Source of the DNA: an archaeon
GTDB lineage: Archaea; Micrarchaeota; Micrarchaeia; Anstonellales; Bilamarchaeaceae
Assembly: GCA_020053355.1 (NCBI GenBank)
Contig: JAGVNI010000007.1
Span: forward strand, 70,838-134,837
Direction: 5' to 3'
Length of the DNA: 64,000 nt
The notes beneath the pieces are model-generated. The model was given only the letters and a program-made list of their open reading frames with translations, was not told where the DNA came from and did no database searches. Shown here in pieces: positions 4,809-56,384 of this stretch (positions are counted from its first letter, which is position 1; each line of letters opens with the position of its first letter). The translations under genes were made by a program, and so were the position numbers.

Positions 4809-4865
4809 TAGGCCTTTTTTGACGATAAAGATTTCATTTTATGACCGTTCCCACCTCTCAAAGGC

Positions 4866-4873
4866 TATAAATA
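4866..4873 (+). promoter_or_regulatory. TATA box for a leaderless transcript of the 4896 gene
   Basis: TATAAATA lies 23-30 nt upstream of the ATG at 4896. This is typical archaeal promoter geometry. Confidence 0.45.
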
Positions 4874-4895
4874 TACCTTTTCAAAATATAATTAT

Positions 4896-5603
4896 ATGAC
4901 GGAACAGCTAGCGCAAGTCGATTCCCCCAAATATTGGCGAATTTTTATAACTGCCGCTTCGGAATTTGACATACAAGGCGTTAATCTTCGAGAGGGGATC
5001 TGCAAGCACCTCAAATTACCGGGTCAAGTTTCGAATATCAAAGACGGAGTTGAACTAATTATATACGGAAACAAGATACAAGCAGAAGAAGCGAAAAAAA
5101 GAGTTTATGGCATTTGCAGGGCAATTCATGGTAGTGAAGATGTCGCCGGACTTGATATAACTCTCTCCGAGCGTCTATTTGACTTCGATATTTCCTCAGT
5201 AAAAGTAAATATTCTTCGTTCTGATGACCTACGGGAAATGGTTTGGGGCTTACAAGGGGCGGGAAGGGTCTTTCAGAAACAATTAGAACAAAAAAAGAAT
5301 CAGTGCTTTATTTCAATTACTTCGATTATAGGCTATGCTGTCGATGATGGAAGCAGTATTGCTCTCCTACAAAATCACCAAATCATGCTTCGAGAGATTC
5401 TTCAAGAGACCCCGTTTGATGAAGAGTTGACTAATTGGTTATTCACTTTCTTAGAAAAAATGATTGATAGTGATCGCCCTGGGTTATTAGGACTTATCGG
5501 GGCTCTTGAAAAAGAGACCGACCAATCAATTGAATCGAAGAGTAAGGATTACCAAGAACTTTACAGAAAAATCAAATTGAGGAAGGTAAAAAAGGGAAAT
5601 TAA
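4896..5603 (+). CDS. Hypothetical protein (235 aa), candidate toxin partner of the downstream Panacea-domain gene
   Basis: A complete ORF in the AT-rich island, 58 nt upstream of the DUF4065-like gene. I recognise no family from the sequence. Confidence 0.5.
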   Translation: MTEQLAQVDSPKYWRIFITAASEFDIQGVNLREGICKHLKLPGQVSNIKDGVELIIYGNKIQAEEAKKRVYGICRAIHGSEDVAGLDITLSERLFDFDISSVKVNILRSDDLREMVWGLQGAGRVFQKQLEQKKNQCFISITSIIGYAVDDGSSIALLQNHQIMLREILQETPFDEELTNWLFTFLEKMIDSDRPGLLGLIGALEKETDQSIESKSKDYQELYRKIKLRKVKKGN

Positions 5604-5660
5604 CGCAGGGAAATACACCACCGTAACGTATATTAACTCCTTTCGCCCCATAAAACTAGT

Positions 5661-6092
5661 ATGCGAACCGAGTTGGTGCAGCTCATTGGCGACTATTATT
5701 TTTCAATGTTTGGTGAGCCAGTTAGTGTAGAATCTTTTCAAAAAAGGCTACAATTTCAAAAATTTGTCTACACATTGGCGCACTTCAACATCATCCCAGA
5801 AGCAAAACCCTTATTCAATTGGTATATCCGAGGCCCTTATTCAAGCACAATTATGGATATTGCGTATGAACTTAGGAGTTCGGATATGTCCTTTGAGTCT
5901 AAACCACTTCCATCTGAACTATCCTTTTTTAATGAAATTAAAAATGATTCTCGAAAAATAGAATTATACGCCTCGCTTTTGTTCCTGAAGGATGCAAGGT
6001 ATTCTAAATCCGAGGCCAAAAAGCTGATTTTAATAAGAAAACCAGATTATTCACTCGAAGAAATTGAAGAAATGATTTCTCATATTCGTTGA
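5661..6092 (+). CDS. Panacea (DUF4065)-like antitoxin-type protein
   Basis: The segment FQKRLQFQKFVYTLAHFNI...KPLFNWYIRGPYSS resembles the KLQKLLYYAQ...PLF..W.YGPV core of DUF4065/SocA-like proteins. Confidence 0.5.
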   Translation: MRTELVQLIGDYYFSMFGEPVSVESFQKRLQFQKFVYTLAHFNIIPEAKPLFNWYIRGPYSSTIMDIAYELRSSDMSFESKPLPSELSFFNEIKNDSRKIELYASLLFLKDARYSKSEAKKLILIRKPDYSLEEIEEMISHIR

Positions 6093-24831: not shown

Positions 24832-25106
24832 GCCGGAAGAGGAAAAAGAAAGCGGGCGCATCCGCAGCAAGCCAATCACGTTCGAACGAAGCTGGAAACC
24901 GGAAACAGGAAACCGCGAACCCTGCGCAGGAAGCGGAAGGCGCGGGGCAGGAAGCCCCCATCACCCAGTACATCTTCACCTTCGAGCTGATCCGCCACTA
25001 TCCGACGGTGCGCTCGTTCATCGTGAAGCAGCCGCTCAAGCGCTCGTTCAAGGATACGGTGTCCGAGCTGTTCGGGGGCAACAAGAAAGGGGTTTACCGG
25101 ATATAA
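24828..25106 (+). CDS. Small basic protein (92 aa)
   Basis: ATGA overlap with the upstream gene. The N-terminus is Lys/Arg-rich. Confidence 0.4.
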   Translation: MSRKRKKKAGASAASQSRSNEAGNRKQETANPAQEAEGAGQEAPITQYIFTFELIRHYPTVRSFIVKQPLKRSFKDTVSELFGGNKKGVYRI

Positions 25107-25154: not shown

Positions 25155-25277
25155 ATGAAATCCGAAGGCATTCCCAAGATGGGGATATCGCGAACTGCGG
25201 TTCGCGAGCATGCTCATGGTCGATTCGTCGACCATGACATACAAAACCCCACTTGGCAAGACATGAGAGGGTTTTGA
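25155..25277 (+). CDS. 40-aa uORF upstream of purD
   Basis: It starts within an exact 18-nt copy (25143-25160) of the purD initiation context GAGGGTTTTGACATGAAA (25267-25284). It stops 1 nt before the purD ATG. Confidence 0.3.
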   Translation: MKSEGIPKMGISRTAVREHAHGRFVDHDIQNPTWQDMRGF

Positions 25278-44262: not shown

Positions 44263-46551
44263 TCACTCAAGCGGATAAATCGCGACGCCCTGCCTGCTCA
44301 CCGCAATCGAGCCTTCATACGGCTCATTGAGGACCAGGTAGACTTCCTTCTCCTTGCCCCGCATGAGCGCCACATGCGGCTTCAATGCCACATAGCCCGT
44401 GTTCTTCGCGTCCACAAAATAGAGGTACCTCGTCTTTCCCTCCGGGAACATGTCGAGAAGCGGCTTGCGCTGCTCAGGGTCCGGCGGAAGCACTATCATG
44501 GGCTTCGTCCTTGCCTCTTTCCGCTCTGCCGCCTTCTGCCTGATGTCTGAGAGAGCGTCCCTGATTTTGCCCTGCCTCGGATGCACCCTCACCGCTTCAT
44601 TCTCGAGCGATGATGCCTGCGCTTCAGGGTGCTGGTATTTGAGGCTCACATAGAAATTCCCATCAAGCGATATCAGCGGAGAGATTCCGGTCAATTCAAT
44701 CTCCCGGCATGATACGACTGTCAGGAAATTCAGCGTATCGCTGTCCATCAAGGACATCTTTTCAGCGAGCGGGTAAAGCCATCTCTTCTCCCCGGATTTC
44801 CCATACAGCCTCTTTATCGCGGCCCGTTCGCTCTCACGGGGGGTAATCACCGCACCGGTCTCAAGGAGCGGCGGGCCTTTCGGGCCGTGGAAGGCGGCCT
44901 CGAAGCCGTAATCTGAATCCATCATCTCGTGCCCCGTTTCGCTTCCGGGCCATATGCCCAGCCATTCTCCCTTGCGCGAAGCGATGCGCACGTTCGGGTA
45001 CATGAACGTGATTTCCTGCCACTCGGCGACAGTCCCGATTTCCATCACGAAATATTCCTTCTTCCCGAGCGTCATCCTCGGGATGCGGCCTCCGTTGAGG
45101 CTCTGCATAATCGAGCTTTCAAGTTCAGTTTGCCCCTTGTCCTCGGGAACCGGGTGTATGAACACCGGCTTGCCTTCCGGAAGGAGCGCGGAATACTTGA
45201 AAAGCTCCTCTTCGGTCAGGAACCTCGTCTTCGTGCTGATTGACCATTCGCCGGTCTGGGGCTGGCTGAGGTCAATCCCTCCGCTCACTTCCCCAAGGAA
45301 CTCGTAATCGGTCGAACTCTCTGGCCAGATGTGCAGCAGGCAGCCGGTCCTCGCGACCCTTTTCGCACCGGCAAACGGCGCATCGACGACATAATACTCG
45401 CGGCCATTGAACTCCCGCCTCGTCTCTTTCGCGAACTGCGCGAGAATCCCTATATCCCCTTTCTCCAAGCTGTCCCGCCTGGGCACCGGAAGCACCCATT
45501 TGGTCTCCTTTTCCGGGAAGTCCTTCTCGCAGGCTTCCTGCTCCCTGCCGCTCAGCCTGTATTCAGCATGCTTGTCTTCCCACGGGAGGCCGAACACCAA
45601 TTCAATCGATATGCTCGTCTCTTCCGGCTCGATGATTTCCGGGTCTAGGAAAACGAAAGGTACTGATTGCGGAGCTGCGGTTCCAGGCCCTGCCTGCGCG
45701 GGCGACTCTTCGCCTTCTGGCTGGCCGTATGTGGAAAGCAGGGATTCTCCGGCTTCCGCCGCGTCTCCCTGTCCGGACCCCTGGAGGCCTTCTTCGACAA
45801 GTTTCCGAAGATTCCGCTCAAGGCTTTCCCCTTCCCTTGCCTCATCCTCTTTGGCAGCCGCCTCATCGGCGATGCGTTCCTCTTCCACTTCCTGGACTCT
45901 CTGAAGGGACAATTCCACGCTGCTCTCCTGCGGCCTTGGCTGTACCGGTGCCACCTTGGGGGCAAGTGCTGACAATCTAGCCGCCTCTGCGGCTTCCTTC
46001 TGCTTTGCCGCCGCATCCTCTGCGACGCGTTGCTGCTCGATTTCAAGGAGCTCGGCAAGCGACCTGCTCACGCTGGATTCGCGGTCCCTCTCCTCAGGTT
46101 CGGCAGCTGGTGCCGGCGTCTTCTTGCCGGTGGCTGCCGCAATCAGTTCAGGCAATGAGAATGCCACGCTTTCCGGAGACGGCCTTGGAGGCTCGCTTTG
46201 CGCTTCCTGCGGCGCAGCCGGTGCGGATTTCGGCGGCAATGATGCCGGCCTCTCCCTTTTCGGCGGTGGCGCCATCATGGGCGGCCTCGGTACGCCGCTT
46301 GCCGGCAGCCCCGGCCTCGTGTCTTCGAATATCTCCACGCCTTCGTCGCCAAGGTCAAGCTCGACTGTTGCCTCGCGCCTCCTCGCCGAGGGCGGGGGCG
46401 GCGGCGCCCGTGATGGCTTCCTCTCTGTAAGCAGTATCGGTTCTTCCTCGGCTTTGCGGGCCTTCCTGAAATAAGGGTGCGGCCCGTCGATTATCGGCAG
46501 CCCCATCCTTCCGCTGACGGTCCCACCCAGTCTTTTCTGCCAGTTCATCAA
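44263..46551 (-). CDS. Large hypothetical protein with a Pro/Ala/Glu-rich low-complexity N-terminal half
   Basis: 762 aa. Roughly residues 40-300 are PAPE-rich and repetitive. The C-terminal 450 aa are globular. Confidence 0.55.
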   Translation of the reverse strand: MMNWQKRLGGTVSGRMGLPIIDGPHPYFRKARKAEEEPILLTERKPSRAPPPPPSARRREATVELDLGDEGVEIFEDTRPGLPASGVPRPPMMAPPPKRERPASLPPKSAPAAPQEAQSEPPRPSPESVAFSLPELIAAATGKKTPAPAAEPEERDRESSVSRSLAELLEIEQQRVAEDAAAKQKEAAEAARLSALAPKVAPVQPRPQESSVELSLQRVQEVEEERIADEAAAKEDEAREGESLERNLRKLVEEGLQGSGQGDAAEAGESLLSTYGQPEGEESPAQAGPGTAAPQSVPFVFLDPEIIEPEETSISIELVFGLPWEDKHAEYRLSGREQEACEKDFPEKETKWVLPVPRRDSLEKGDIGILAQFAKETRREFNGREYYVVDAPFAGAKRVARTGCLLHIWPESSTDYEFLGEVSGGIDLSQPQTGEWSISTKTRFLTEEELFKYSALLPEGKPVFIHPVPEDKGQTELESSIMQSLNGGRIPRMTLGKKEYFVMEIGTVAEWQEITFMYPNVRIASRKGEWLGIWPGSETGHEMMDSDYGFEAAFHGPKGPPLLETGAVITPRESERAAIKRLYGKSGEKRWLYPLAEKMSLMDSDTLNFLTVVSCREIELTGISPLISLDGNFYVSLKYQHPEAQASSLENEAVRVHPRQGKIRDALSDIRQKAAERKEARTKPMIVLPPDPEQRKPLLDMFPEGKTRYLYFVDAKNTGYVALKPHVALMRGKEKEVYLVLNEPYEGSIAVSRQGVAIYPLE

Positions 46552-46705
46552 CTGATATGTATCTCGGAAACACTTTATAAATGTTTATTTTTATGGTCAA
46601 ATGTAATTTTCCATACCCCCCCTGCAAGGCCGACATGCCGCGCGCACATGGCTTGCGATATGATTTAATTACTTTATGCCCATCAGATTGCTCACTACTT
46701 TGACT

Positions 46706-46776
46706 GCGACCGTAGTCTATCGGTATGATTCGAGGTTGCCAATCTCGCGGGCCGGGTTCAATTCCCGGCGGTCGCA
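46706..46776 (+). tRNA. tRNA-Gly (anticodon GCC)
   Basis: The acceptor stem is GCGACCG/CGGTCGC with discriminator A. The D-loop has GG. The anticodon stem is CGAGG/TCTCG with loop TTGCCAA. The T arm is CCGGG-TTCAATT-CCCGG. A T-run follows. Confidence 0.6.
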
Positions 46777-46778
46777 AA

Positions 46779-46785
46779 TTTTTTT
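46779..46785 (+). terminator. Oligo-T terminator after the tRNA
   Basis: TTTTTTT immediately 3' of the tRNA. Confidence 0.4.
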
Positions 46786-46818
46786 AATAAAAATTTGGGT
46801 CCCCCGGGAATTGATGAG

Positions 46819-46836
46819 CAATTCCCGGCGGTCGCA
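46819..46836 (+). repeat. Direct repeat of the tRNA-Gly 3' end (CAATTCCCGGCGGTCGCA), copy 2
   Basis: An exact 18-nt match to 46759-46776. Confidence 0.6.
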
Positions 46837-46934
46837 TTCCCATTACTTTTGTCTTCAGCTTCTCACCGGGCAAAAGTAAAGGGATTGGTCAAAAGCCCTG
46901 AGGTTTACTCCGGCCGGAATTGTGTGGTTCCCTT

Positions 46935-46952
46935 CAATTCCCGACGGTCGCA
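46935..46952 (+). repeat. Direct repeat of the tRNA-Gly 3' end, copy 3 (1 mismatch)
   Basis: CAATTCCCGACGGTCGCA, followed by a T-run. The T-stem is disrupted, so it is not a functional tRNA half. Confidence 0.55.
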
Positions 46953-47123
46953 TTTTTTCCGCAGAAAAAATGGGACACGGGAAGCGCCGCTTCCCTCTGT
47001 CGCATTTTTGTTCACTTGCCTCGCGCATAGCGCTCGGCGTGAACACGGTTTATTACCTAGACGGCTTATTAGATCCGCTCTTCTAATCGAGGCTTATTCC
47101 TAATTCTCTTGGCTATCGTGCAC

Positions 47124-47735
47124 TCAGTAATTGCCGATGACCTGCCTCAGCGCATCGACGGCTTCTGCCACGGTCTGGAATATCCCGATTGGCTTTTGCG
47201 AGCGGTCGCTCACTGAAATCGGGAGCTCGCGGCGGACCTTCTCCTCCTCATCCGGCTCGATGACGATTCCTCTATCGAGCGAGCTGGGCCTGATTGTAAA
47301 CACGCCATTTGTCAAGAAGTTTCCAATCCGGAGCTTCGTGAACCTGGCCTCCCCGCCTATATCGAGTGTGAGCATTCCTGAAAGCGACCTGCTTGTGTTC
47401 CTGAGCTTGACCGCGGCGATGCACCCTTCCACCACGTTCCTTGGGGACACCACATCACCCATGCCGGAAAGCACGAACACGCCGTTGGCGAACATGAAAT
47501 CAGCGACGATGTCAATCCTCCGCAGTTCAGGATTGGCCTTGAAGATGTTGGCGTTGCCTTCCTCCCAGTTATCGCGGTCCTTGCCATACCTGCCATACCT
47601 ATGGTCGTAATAGTCCGTGAGCCCCTTCTCTTCAAGAAGGCCCCTCGTCCGGAAGACGCGCCTGAACTCGCGCTTCGATTCGGCCCTTGCCGTCTCCTCC
47701 GGTCCGCGAAGCAGAATCCTGTCGATTAGTGCCAT
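47124..47735 (-). CDS. Hypothetical protein (203 aa)
   Basis: Complete ORF with native composition. No family recognised. Confidence 0.5.
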   Translation of the reverse strand: MALIDRILLRGPEETARAESKREFRRVFRTRGLLEEKGLTDYYDHRYGRYGKDRDNWEEGNANIFKANPELRRIDIVADFMFANGVFVLSGMGDVVSPRNVVEGCIAAVKLRNTSRSLSGMLTLDIGGEARFTKLRIGNFLTNGVFTIRPSSLDRGIVIEPDEEEKVRRELPISVSDRSQKPIGIFQTVAEAVDALRQVIGNY

Positions 47736-47863: not shown

Positions 47864-48661
47864 ATGTCCGAACTGGCAGAGGAGATGCTAAAGAACCTGG
47901 AAGTCTGGGAAGTCAAGAATCTTCTTTCGCACGAGCAGGTCATCTCCCAAAACCTGAAAAGGCTCAAGGAGGCCATGCTGAACATCGGCCATCTGGTAGA
48001 CCCTCTGATTGTGGACAAGAACACCGGCGTAGTGCTGGATGGCAACCACCGCCTCAAAGTCCTTGAAATCATAGAATGCCCGCATGCGACCGTGCAGGCG
48101 CTCGATTATTCCAGCGATGAAATCGGCCTGGGGACGTGGTATCCGACCGTGTCATTGACATCCGACGAAATATTCCACCTGGACTCCCTCAAGCACGAGA
48201 AAGTCGATTATGAGGCGGGAAAGGCGGCCGTCGACAGCCTCAAGGCGCCGTTCATGCTGATGGGGAAAGACAAGGAGTACCACCTGATAAACCCCGGCTC
48301 GTACAAGCTCATGGAGATGGTGGAAGAGCAGAACTACGTATTCTCGCTCCTTGAGAAAGGCACGGTCGATTACATCCCGGACGAGGAGGTGGACAAGTCC
48401 CTCTCGCTCAAGAAATCGGTCTTCTACCGGCGCGCATATAAAAAAGAGGAAGTCGTGAAAGCCGCCCAGGCCCACACCCCGTTCCCGCCGAAATCGACAA
48501 GGCACAAGATTCCCGGGCGCATAATCCGGCTGAACATGAAGCTCGGATGGCTGCACCGCTCGCGCGACGAGGCTTCCACAGAACTCACGCGCATGCTCAC
48601 AAGCCGCGTCTATGGCGGGAACGTCCGGAAATACTACGAGCCCGTCATCGTGATATACTGA
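47864..48661 (+). CDS. ParB/sulfiredoxin-like nuclease-domain protein
   Basis: LIVDKNTGVVLDGNHRLKVL matches the ParB N-terminal domain motif (DGxHR). Confidence 0.5.
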   Translation: MSELAEEMLKNLEVWEVKNLLSHEQVISQNLKRLKEAMLNIGHLVDPLIVDKNTGVVLDGNHRLKVLEIIECPHATVQALDYSSDEIGLGTWYPTVSLTSDEIFHLDSLKHEKVDYEAGKAAVDSLKAPFMLMGKDKEYHLINPGSYKLMEMVEEQNYVFSLLEKGTVDYIPDEEVDKSLSLKKSVFYRRAYKKEEVVKAAQAHTPFPPKSTRHKIPGRIIRLNMKLGWLHRSRDEASTELTRMLTSRVYGGNVRKYYEPVIVIY

Positions 48662-55451: not shown

Positions 55452-55817
55452 AACCAGCCTCCTTTCCCTAGGCTTTTAATCCTTCTAATGCATAATTACT
55501 CCAGAGTGAGGGGCAGGCAGCCTACGTTTTTTCTTCTGAAAAAATGAGGAAGTTCCGCCCTCCGCGAGAGATACTGCCCTTTAAGGGGGCGGACACGGAA
55601 CAGAAACGATACCCAAAGTCCGCAAGGGCAAGGGATGCAACGCATCCTGAACTGCGCAAGCAGTTCGGGAGCTTTGGAACGAAGTTCCATTGATCGTGTC
55701 TTATCTCGATGACGGAGCAAGGCGCTTTGCGCCGCTCTCCTTAATCCGAAAGGATTTTGGGGCCTTTTGGCCGCGTAAGCGGACAAATTGCAGTCAAATG
55801 CTGCCGAAATACAGAAG

Positions 55818-55850
55818 GCGGACTATGCCCCTCACTTGAACTTTTTCTCC
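55818..55850 (+). repeat. 33-nt direct repeat, copy 1 (GCGGACTATGCCCCTCACTTGAACTTTTTCTCC)
   Basis: It repeats at 55968-56000 with 2 differences. It is part of a diverged tandem duplication of about 150-190 nt. Confidence 0.6.
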
Positions 55851-55967
55851 TTATCAACCCCTGTCAAAACTTCACTAAACATCCTGTCCGGTTTGACTCC
55901 GGCCTTTGTGAAACCTCAGGTGGGGGTCTGAAAGGGGACGCGCAAGTCAAACCGGAGAGCCCCTTTC

Positions 55968-56000
55968 GCGGACTATGCCCCTCACTTGAACTTTTCCTCC
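55968..56000 (+). repeat. 33-nt direct repeat, copy 2
   Basis: See copy 1. There are further shared blocks: AAAACTTCACTAAAC at 55866/56026, and CTGTCCG(G/A)TTTGACTCCGG at 55884/56072. Confidence 0.6.
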
Positions 56001-56093
56001 GGTCTGACACCGGATAAAACTTCACTAAACTTCAGCCGGTCTGACTCCGTACAGACGATTTTATCAATCGCCTGTCCGATTTGACTCCGGCTT

Positions 56094-56384
56094 TTGTGCA
56101 ATCTGGTGGCTCTCATGAAATCGATAACGGATTTGAAGGACTCGGACATCATCGAGATAAACGGCGAGAAATACCGGGTCCTTGCAAGCGGACCACCCAA
56201 TTCCCTATGGTACCATGAGGGCCGGAAGGATGTGGAATATGGGGTCGATTTGGTGAAGCTCGGGTCTGATGCGATAACCCCTACGCATCAACTGGGGTAT
56301 TTCTCAAAAAAGCCGGACGAATTCCGGGTTTATCGGCTAGGGAAAGAAGCGGTCCCTGAAAGCGTCGAGGCCGTCAAGTTTTGA
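56094..56384 (+). CDS. Small hypothetical protein (96 aa; the start may be MKSITDL at 56116)
   Basis: Complete ORF downstream of the repeat region. Confidence 0.4.
   Translation: MCNLVALMKSITDLKDSDIIEINGEKYRVLASGPPNSLWYHEGRKDVEYGVDLVKLGSDAITPTHQLGYFSKKPDEFRVYRLGKEAVPESVEAVKF

Follow-up and report, generated by a model that had tools for sequence, protein, structure and literature searches.

Introduction

At the tRNA genes known as landing sites for foreign DNA, the inserted elements are large and encode their own integrase. Where the integrase crosses over in the T loop, the identity block between the attachment sites usually extends from there as far as the discriminator base of the tRNA (bioRxiv 10.1101/2020.11.02.365908). 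Here we describe a locus at which this block is repeated around units that are very small and end in hairpins. It lies behind tRNA-Gly(GCC) in a 64,000-nucleotide stretch of DNA from a member of the Micrarchaeota (assembly GCA_020053355.1, contig JAGVNI010000007.1, positions 70,838 to 134,837 of the forward strand). This whole stretch is called the window, and all positions below count from its first letter. The setting is a phylum of archaea whose genomes are tiny and in which hardly any mobile elements have been described.

A first-pass annotation had noticed that the last 18 nt of this tRNA recur twice downstream. It had read the extra copies as scars of integrase-mediated insertion around possible remnants of decayed elements or, alternatively, as tRNA-derived small RNA loci. 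We tentatively propose instead a tRNA-anchored locus into which cassettes insert by site-specific recombination, with the enzyme encoded elsewhere; we hold this to be possible and somewhat short of probable. In the following, A denotes a forward copy of the tRNA end and A' an inverted one, and H2 is a shorter, degenerate hairpin of the same kind.

Comparison with described systems

With tyrosine-integrase integration at tRNA genes (with crossover in the T loop and with integrase-less, att-flanked elements accreting in tandem) the locus shares direct repeats of a tRNA 3' segment, an intact tRNA, empty and filled sites, serial copies and variable genes beside the tRNA. It differs in that no integrase was found and that the units measure 52-116 nt or hold single genes. 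The distal copies, moreover, are arms of hairpins with a conserved inverted partner, the minimal core is GTCGCA, and conservation across species extends to the intervening DNA.

Integron arrays, including integrase-less clusters of attC sites (CALINs), have been reported in Archaea (PMC9668308). As in an integron, ordered units stand beside a fixed anchor, and each unit of the array carries one attC-like imperfect hairpin with constant ends, a conserved foot, conserved unpaired bases and a centre that varies but stays paired. Single genes make up some of the units, turnover is fast and the recombinase may act in trans. The boxes RYYYAAC and GTTRRRY of attC, however, are replaced by hairpin feet of the sequence TGGGAC/GTCGCA, the anchor is the 3' end of a tRNA and most units are free of genes. 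No IntI was seen; the gene divergent from the array, where IntI lies divergent from attI, encodes a 762-aa protein that matches no family. Gene orientation is mixed, with the open reading frames (ORFs) of one relative (L101) and a 203-aa ORF of the window running opposite to the tRNA strand. With 33-41 nt the array hairpins are also shorter than attC sites.

In Escherichia coli the tyrT trailer contains 178-bp repeats with the last 19 nt of tRNA-Tyr and is the source of rtT RNA (RF00391). The likeness lies in a tRNA 3' end repeated in its own trailer in the same orientation, for which the closest case here is the tRNA-Arg of one relative (L048, see below). The rtT RNA is mentioned in bioRxiv 10.1101/2024.07.17.603846. 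The window differs from tyrT in being archaeal, in having inverted copies and in having units that are unrelated beyond the hairpin; no tandem repeat was found between 46000 and 48000, and a search with the RtT model RF00391 gave no match at E values up to 10.

Repetitive extragenic palindromes (REP), with the mosaic elements (BIME) and hairpin-forming doublets (REPIN) built from them, resemble the array as extragenic, alternating imperfect palindromes with short conserved linkers, a constant end, a variable stem and loop insertions. REPs are dispersed in hundreds of copies, whereas the A':A hairpins and H2 are confined to the DNA behind the matching tRNA-Gly, and no RAYT-type gene is known here. 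The window has the 18-mer and its hairpins nowhere but behind the tRNA; across 824 kb from relatives, 17 of the 19 short hairpins lie on the tRNA strand and at most 600 nt behind tRNA-Gly.

Casposons duplicate 15 bp (14-15 bp) of their target, of which only 5 bp overlap the tRNA, and possess terminal inverted repeats, Cas1 and PolB (PMC5137440). Targeting of the T-loop region, duplication of a tRNA-end segment and possible tandem insertion are common to both. The array units, in contrast, show neither the 15-bp duplication nor terminal inverted repeats nor a Cas1/PolB cargo, and the segment they duplicate is part of the tRNA itself. The window does encode a family-B DNA polymerase away from the array; the 25 of 68 Pfam families listed include no Cas1. 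A casposon footprint was rejected, as the features described in PMC5137440 do not fit.

Organization of the array

ARAGORN found a single tRNA gene in the window, tRNA-Gly(GCC) at 46705-46777 on the plus strand, and the Rfam tRNA profile RF00005 matched 46706-46776 with 55.9 bits. The gene (46706-46776) is intact and intron-free and does not encode the CCA end. Since it is complete at this score, a split or permuted tRNA or one with a non-canonical intron was rejected. No bulge-helix-bulge motif was seen by eye at the extra copies; no formal search for it was run.

The repeated block comprises the last 18 nt of the tRNA (copy A1, 46759-46776, CAATTCCCGGCGGTCGCA). As the first-pass annotation had stated, an exact copy lies at 46819-46836 and one with a single mismatch at 46935-46952, and the gaps between the copies measure 42 and 98 nt. 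The mismatch is a G to A exchange at 46944. With up to three mismatches allowed, the 18-mer has four matches in the window versus 0.14 expected, and four were reached in none of 100 shuffles; the fourth match is the inverted copy at 46796-46813. No other pieces of tRNA-Gly were found elsewhere in the 64 kb. The block runs from the T loop through the discriminator base (A73) and is present in three forward copies of 18-20 nt; the identity of copy 3 reaches 20 nt (TTCAATT...). Over a 42-nt stretch that includes them, copies 1 and 3 show 76% identity. The oligo-T runs that had been described behind these two copies are also there, AA followed by T7 (46779-46785) behind copy 1 and T6 (46953-46958) behind copy 3, and copy 3 indeed lacks a partner for a T-stem.

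Three elements had been overlooked: two inverted copies at 46796-46813 and 46910-46922 and a degenerate fourth unit at 46972-47004. With these included, the array extends from about 46757 to 47009 and has the layout A1 - H1 - A' - A2 - M2 - A' (partial) - A3 - H1 - degenerate A':A. Every forward copy behind the tRNA forms the 3' arm of a hairpin, and the leaders of the extra copies are self-complementary. In total the window holds three non-coding units of 60, 116 and 52 nt, all read here on the plus strand.

The tRNA is followed by H1a (46777-46795), a short AT-rich palindrome (AAATTTTT / TTAAT / AAAAATTT) that includes the T7 run. H1a forms the centre of a larger imperfect palindrome of 26+5+26 nt (46758-46814), which takes in the tRNA 3' end and its inverted copy and whose arms (inverted repeat I1) are 88% complementary. 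The inverted 18-mer copy A'1 (46796-46813, TGGGTCCCCCGGGAATTG) deviates from A by three mismatches, C.C, T.T and G.G (I4). Across the loop ATGAG (46814-46818) it pairs with the exact forward copy A2 (46819-46836), the 3' arm of this hairpin. H1a, A'1 and A2 together make up the 60-nt module M1 (46777-46836).

Module M2 (46837-46909) begins with TTCC right after ...GTCGCA. It contains a 17-bp hairpin with arms at 46835-46851 and 46871-46887, followed by GGTCAAAAGC (I3). The partial inverted copy A'2 (46910-46922, CCGGCCGGAATTG) could pair with either A2 or A3 (I8-I10). A3 (46933-46952; D1, D2) is a 20-nt forward copy that includes the TT of the T loop and carries the exchange at 46944; it is the decayed 3' arm of an A':A hairpin. 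M2 and A3 form the 116-nt module (46837-46952).

The next element, H1b (46953-46971), is again an AT-rich palindrome (TTTTTTC / CGCA / GAAAAAA; I6) and contains the T6 run. It is followed by the mini-hairpin H2 (GGGACACGGGAAGCGCCGCTTCCCTCTGTCGCA, 46972-47004; D7, I12) of 33 nt with a 7-bp upper stem. The foot of H2, GGGAC/GTCGC, contains a G.G mismatch, and its 3' end (CTGTCGCA) closes with GTCGCA and a T5 run. H2 is a degenerate fourth copy of the tRNA-Gly end. After the last GTCGCA and T5, a terminal hairpin GTTCAC...GTGAAC (47010-47044) is found, and similar hairpins are present in three relatives (L025, L032, L054). When folded as RNA, the array region is far more stable than shuffled sequences (z = -6.5). 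Elsewhere in the window, such large hairpins are rare.

Conservation of the hairpins among relatives

Searching one genome per species for the last 22 nt of tRNA-Gly gave 57 loci, nearly all from Micrarchaeota or Iainarchaeota, both belonging to the DPANN archaea. A metagenome scan with the same 22-mer added 56 (L066-L121), giving 113 loci in total. The genes flanking the array are archaeal (Nre), and the neighbouring proteins are 76-85% identical to their counterparts in three relatives (L057, L040, L043).

The succession of tRNA, AT-rich hairpin, inverted copy and forward copy recurs in seven loci (L040, L043, L057, L014, L067, L080, L059), and we take the array to be a trait of the lineage. 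An AT-rich hairpin equivalent to H1a and of different sequence follows tRNA-Gly in many relatives. The 18 nt of A', including the three mismatches, are identical in the window and in L040, L043, L014 and L059. The AT-rich hairpins and the loops of the A':A hairpins, on the other hand, differ among these five genomes (loops ATGAG, TTGTT, GGATT, CGGAA and GTG). In L014 and L080 both arms of the A':A hairpin have changed together (GGGAAACA/TGTTTCCC and GGAAATC/GATTTCC).

The short form of the hairpin, GGGAC...GTCGCA, is found behind tRNA-Gly in at least 17 loci. An alignment of 16 homologues was used to analyze covariation. The foot, consisting of four pairs and the G.G mismatch, is invariant in all 16. 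The seven pairs of the upper stem are 99% paired, and every one of the seven has changed on both sides. The covariation score was reached by none of 500 shuffles, and sliding the partners against each other abolishes the pairing. Only two of the 112 cells of the variable upper helix are G.U pairs. Within 300 nt downstream of tRNA-Gly, GTCGCA occurs 32 times on the plus and four times on the minus strand (38 loci). The folding energy of the trailers shows no strand bias, the plus strand being more stable in 11 of 20. A metagenome scan for the A':A hairpin pattern gave no matches, and a literature search on DPANN palindromic repeats or tRNA-linked minihelices yielded nothing specific.

These results bear on the 42- and 98-nt segments that had been taken for possible remnants of decayed elements. 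Both are conserved hairpin modules shared among relatives: the 42-nt segment consists of the AT-rich hairpin and the inverted copy of the tRNA end, and the module in the 98-nt segment is also found in L036, L059, L079 and L080. The first-pass reading also leaves the inverted copies unaccounted for.

Turnover of the units

The contig of a near-identical strain, L059, was identified by its copy of the 265-aa gene that borders the region on the right, the two copies being 98% identical. Across tRNA-Gly and about 150 nt upstream, L059 is 100% identical to the window. It lacks precisely the 60 nt of M1, with breakpoints exactly at the repeat, and M2 is nearly unchanged. At the place of A'2 and A3, L059 has a complete TGGGTCCCCCGGGAATTG and a forward copy, compared to which the window shows a 13-nt deletion and the G to A exchange. 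The distal modules of L059 are unlike those of the window.

Between species the order of the modules varies. It is M1-M2-M3 in the window, M1-M3-M5 in L040 and begins with M3-M1 in L014. M2 comes first, directly behind tRNA-Gly, in L036 and L079, and lies behind a gene-bearing insert in L080. Likewise, H1b and its hairpin directly follow the tRNA in L014 and follow copy 2 in L040. L063 and L094 have M5 as their only module and no extra copy of the tRNA end. Empty and filled states of the site thus both exist (L059, L063), the inserts of the window being the hairpin modules of 42 and 98 nt. The apical loop of the short hairpin harbours a 58-nt double-hairpin element in L062 and L064 and is empty in the window.

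Gene-bearing inserts

In some relatives the same repeats bracket pieces of 0.3-1.3 kb with a gene. The largest, in L080, is a 1.27-kb piece between GATTTCCGGCGGTCACA and GATTTCCGGCGGTCGCA that contains a 349-aa orphan ORF (4831-5880); an inverted partial copy stands before the second repeat and an M2-like module after it. The ORF has no Pfam match and no homologue in the other fetched loci. In L101 about 640 nt with an ORF on the strand opposite to the tRNA are followed by TTCCCGGCGGTCGCA, and in L085 about 330 nt with a small ORF lie between 19-nt repeats that combine 10 nt of the tRNA with the adjoining downstream flank. L061 and L036 have a DUF6498 gene between ...CTGTCGCA and ...TTCGTCGCA. 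All these inserts are single genes, without a recombinase among them. Together with the empty and filled states, the gene-bearing inserts between repeats support insertion at the tRNA-Gly site.

In the window, the position between the array and a conserved gene is occupied by the 203-aa ORF (47124-47735, minus strand). It is also present in L040, L054, L057, L047, L008, L052, L059 and L062-L064. It is absent from L043, L014, L025 and others, and L036 and L061 have the DUF6498 gene instead. Because the ORF comes and goes among relatives in this way, the 3' flank of tRNA-Gly can be regarded as a variable locus up to the conserved gene. The right-hand border is formed by this gene (47864-48661, plus strand), which encodes a ParB/SerK-like protein of 265 aa with a weak NCBIfam SerK match; it is 57-94% identical among loci with a comparable full-length gene. 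The 203-aa ORF is possibly a gene cassette, as a variable occupant of the position. It gave no match in Pfam, NCBIfam, PADLOC or PHROG. Homologues numbered only 23; the few among them with a source name bear the label Micrarchaeota. The AlphaFold model of the protein is confident, with a mean predicted local distance difference test value (pLDDT) of 88 and a predicted template modelling score (pTM) of 0.86. A role of this protein as the recombinase was rejected, as no fold in the Protein Data Bank (PDB) matched at E = 0.001 despite the quality of the model.

No large element was found to be bracketed in the same way. Among the 113 related loci, none was seen to have a copy of the tRNA 3' end more than about 1.3 kb from the tRNA; the distant matches all have three mismatches and probably belong to nearby tRNA-Gly(TCC) genes. 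For the idea of integrase-type insertion at the tRNA, the outcome is divided. The extent of the block, breakpoints of empty and filled sites at the repeat and the gene inserts speak for it; the integrase and the large integrated element that belong to it were not found.

Repeats behind other tRNAs and the link to introns

The duplication of a tRNA end is not restricted to tRNA-Gly(GCC). In the first locus set, at least 10 nt of the tRNA's own 3' end are repeated no more than 400 nt downstream for 14 of 89 tRNAs. Upstream copies were found for two of the 89, both of which are tandem tRNA genes. The tRNAs with downstream copies include tRNA-Val, tRNA-Gly(TCC) and tRNA-Arg, and in every case the copy agrees with the tRNA that it follows. 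Behind tRNA-Val(TAC) of L018, an exact 20-nt copy (T loop to A73) lies 74 nt downstream and is preceded by a hairpin. The spacer in L022, about 75 nt with a hairpin, is homologous to that of L018, and the copy matches the different tRNA-Val of L022 itself; such self-matching copies imply concerted change or independent duplication. The duplications at tRNA-Gly(TCC) in L042 and L015 take in several bases of the flank. Behind tRNA-Arg(TCG) of L048 (4173-4388) we found an 85-nt unit repeated in tandem in 2.5 perfect copies. Every copy closes with the final 9 nt of the tRNA, and the repeats represent a recent tandem duplication of the tyrT type.

Many tRNA-Gly(GCC) genes of Micrarchaeota and Iainarchaeota contain an intron of 23-190 nt at position 37/38, some of them with nested hairpins (L048, L054, L017, L047, L052, L031, L008 and L061 are among these loci). 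The 5' part of the introns, TTCC-GCCTTTTAGGAAAAGGC-GGCCCAAAAC, is homologous to trailer modules of L043, L057, L052 and L082; the trailer module of L043 matches the intron of L048 at 29 of 30 nt. These intron-like modules (M4 type) begin with TCC or TTCC directly after GTCGCA. M2 of the window has the same layout (TTCC, hairpin, CAAAAG) and weak sequence similarity to the introns. One module family thus occurs in both tRNA trailers and introns, which bears on the origin of archaeal tRNA introns. Separately, tRNA-Gly of L006 and L101 seems to carry an intron in the D loop.

Proposed mechanism

Based on the anatomy of the array and on the relatives, we propose the following mechanism for its growth. 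The 3' end of tRNA-Gly(GCC) would anchor a small, fast-changing cassette array in the DNA. Each unit closes in a hairpin, the 5' arm being an imperfect inverted copy and the 3' arm repeating the tRNA 3' end over a length that ranges from GTCGCA to the full block of 18-21 nt between T loop and discriminator. Insertion at the ...GGTCGCA junction would restore the tRNA end or the site. Serial copies would result because every insertion recreates the tRNA end and pushes the older units outward. In the window, three non-coding units would thus be followed, possibly, by a single-gene unit with the 203-aa ORF. The units would move by site-specific recombination on the hairpins, either similar to integron attC sites or of an Xer-like or HUH type, and the recombinase would act from elsewhere in the genome. 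We infer the direction of each event, insertion or deletion.

This proposal is supported by the hairpin anatomy, by the conservation of the foot and its mismatch and by the compensatory changes in the upper stem. The gain and loss of units between strains with breakpoints at the repeats, the changes in order between species and the gene-bearing units of relatives support it as well. If units do recombine on such hairpins, the locus would represent a new route of gene capture and a new use of tRNA-like DNA structure.

Several points weigh against it. None of the ORFs between 42999 and 50617, within about 8 kb of the array, belongs to an integrase family, and a Pfam scan of the whole window (50 ORFs) gave no integrase among the 25 of 68 families listed. 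The neighbouring genes in close relatives are housekeeping or unclassified genes and include no integrase. Neither a free element nor an attP was found in a scan of viral contigs with the 18-mer; the sole match, inside a 2073-aa phage ORF without a tRNA, was discarded as a chance match. Units of 52-60 nt are very small as circular recombination substrates. Because a deletion between 18-nt repeats needs slippage only, the strain differences are no proof of site-specific recombination, and the perfect tandem repeats behind tRNA-Arg of L048 could stem from slippage alone. Finally, the comparison sequences are metagenome contigs or metagenome-assembled genomes throughout.

A more general version of the cassette proposal, in which Micrarchaeota and probably other DPANN archaea share the system, the short hairpin sites mimic the acceptor and T arm of the anchoring tRNA and function like attC sites without being related to integrons, and mobile hairpin elements of the same family also land in the anticodon loop and persist there as the 37/38 introns of tRNA-Gly, appears unlikely to us. 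If true, it would offer a direct view of the origin of archaeal tRNA introns. In practice, the region can be used as a hypervariable strain marker, and it is a trap for the annotation of tRNAs and small RNAs in DPANN genomes.

Alternative explanations

The rival that survives best assumes local replication errors at hairpins, by template switching and slippage, together with nested small palindromic mobile elements and no dedicated recombination. We rate it as fairly unlikely. Fold-back template switching, known from quasi-palindrome mutagenesis, yields arrangements such as the forward-inverted-forward order around an AT-rich palindrome that is found here. It would, however, erase the three mismatches that A' keeps in five genomes while the neighbouring bases diverge. 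The foot with its G.G mismatch, invariant in 16 of 16 hairpins, also speaks against this rival. Slippage could account for the tandem repeats of L048 and for the loss of M1 in L059, a simple repeat-to-repeat deletion, whereas unique gene-bearing inserts between repeats cannot arise by local copying and the order of the modules varies by species. Almost pure Watson-Crick pairing of the hairpins without a strand bias fits such a DNA-level process, as does the presence of a separate double-hairpin element in the H2 loop (L062, L064) and at 25186-25240 of the window.

Function at the RNA level is a distinctly unlikely explanation. It holds that tRNA-like minihelices in a read-through transcript of tRNA-Gly act as marks for RNase P and tRNase Z or as terminators and release the intervening pieces, much as the E. 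coli tyrT trailer yields rtT RNA. All units do have the orientation of the tRNA and end in GUCGCA, often with a U run behind it. The strong covariation and the z value of the structured region would be expected of an RNA, and the homology of M4-type modules to the 5' part of the tRNA-Gly intron means that this sequence is certainly transcribed in other genomes. In the window, however, the T7 run follows immediately behind the tRNA, and oligo-T terminates archaeal RNA polymerase. The covarying helix hardly uses G.U pairs, and the folding energy shows no preference for the plus strand. At the second pair of the acceptor-like stem, which is C2-G71 in tRNA-Gly, the hairpins show the conserved G.G mismatch. 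Near-identical strains differ by entire units, an unusual behaviour for a functional RNA, and in Rfam the array region matched the tRNA only, RtT being unmatched. Owing to the scarcity of G.U pairs, the missing strand bias, the T7 run, the G.G mismatch and the lack of an Rfam match, we favour a structure that acts as DNA; a read-through RNA may be made as well. For the first three of these reasons, the tRNA-derived small RNA loci of the first-pass annotation are not favoured either.

Literal scars, that is attL and attR sites of integrase-bearing proviruses or plasmids that had inserted at the T loop and been reduced by decay to 42 and 98 nt, are very unlikely: the block does run from the T loop to the 3' end, gene content beside the tRNA varies and relatives have gene inserts between repeats, but the intervening segments are structured modules with the same borders in several species, neither an integrase or a fragment of one near the tRNA of the window nor a viral attP was found, and the 113 loci contain no tRNA-end copy beyond about 1.3 kb and only single-gene inserts without a recombinase.

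Neighbouring genes and further observations

Upstream of tRNA-Gly, and divergent from it, lies the 762-aa ORF (44263-46551, minus strand). Its N-terminal half is of low complexity, the N-terminal third being rich in Pro, Ala and Glu, and the C-terminal part contains repeated ...IWP.S... segments. Homologues are found upstream of tRNA-Gly in L057, L040, L043, L052, L008, L047 and L063. The protein was rejected as a candidate recombinase, as it has no sequence match in Pfam, NCBIfam, PADLOC, PHROG or the PDB and is missing from some genomes that carry the array.

Three further interpretations of parts of the array were discarded or set aside. A C/D-box sRNA was suggested by UGAUGA at 46811-46816 and CUGA at 46898; the loop is not conserved in L040, L043 and L057, and the spacing is too long. 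A' does not qualify as a primer-binding site of the retroviral type, as there is no complementarity to the CCA-bearing 3' end. Inverted boxes around an AT-rich centre are reminiscent of a replication origin; the AT stretch comprises only 19 bp, and no orc/cdc6 gene adjoins it.

The double hairpin at 25186-25240 of the window consists of TCGCGAAC-tgcg-GTTCGCGA, GCATGC and TCATGGTCGA-ttcg-TCGACCATGA, and lies in a spacer unrelated to a tRNA. With compensatory changes, the element is also present in the tRNA-Gly flanks of L054, L048, L047 and L034. From its sequence it looks like a small mobile palindromic element.

A non-coding region of 640 nt at 55480-56120 contains two direct-repeat units of about 150 nt, with the repeat pairs 55818-55883 / 55968-56033 and 55883-55916 / 56071-56104, and no match in Rfam. 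In part, the unit is similar to M5, the trailer module of L054, L040, L014 and L019. At 24886-24916, short repeats of the GGAAACC type (GGAAACCGGAAACAGGAAACC) were observed, similar to the GGTTTCC repeats that L057, L043 and L017 carry in their tRNA-Gly trailers.

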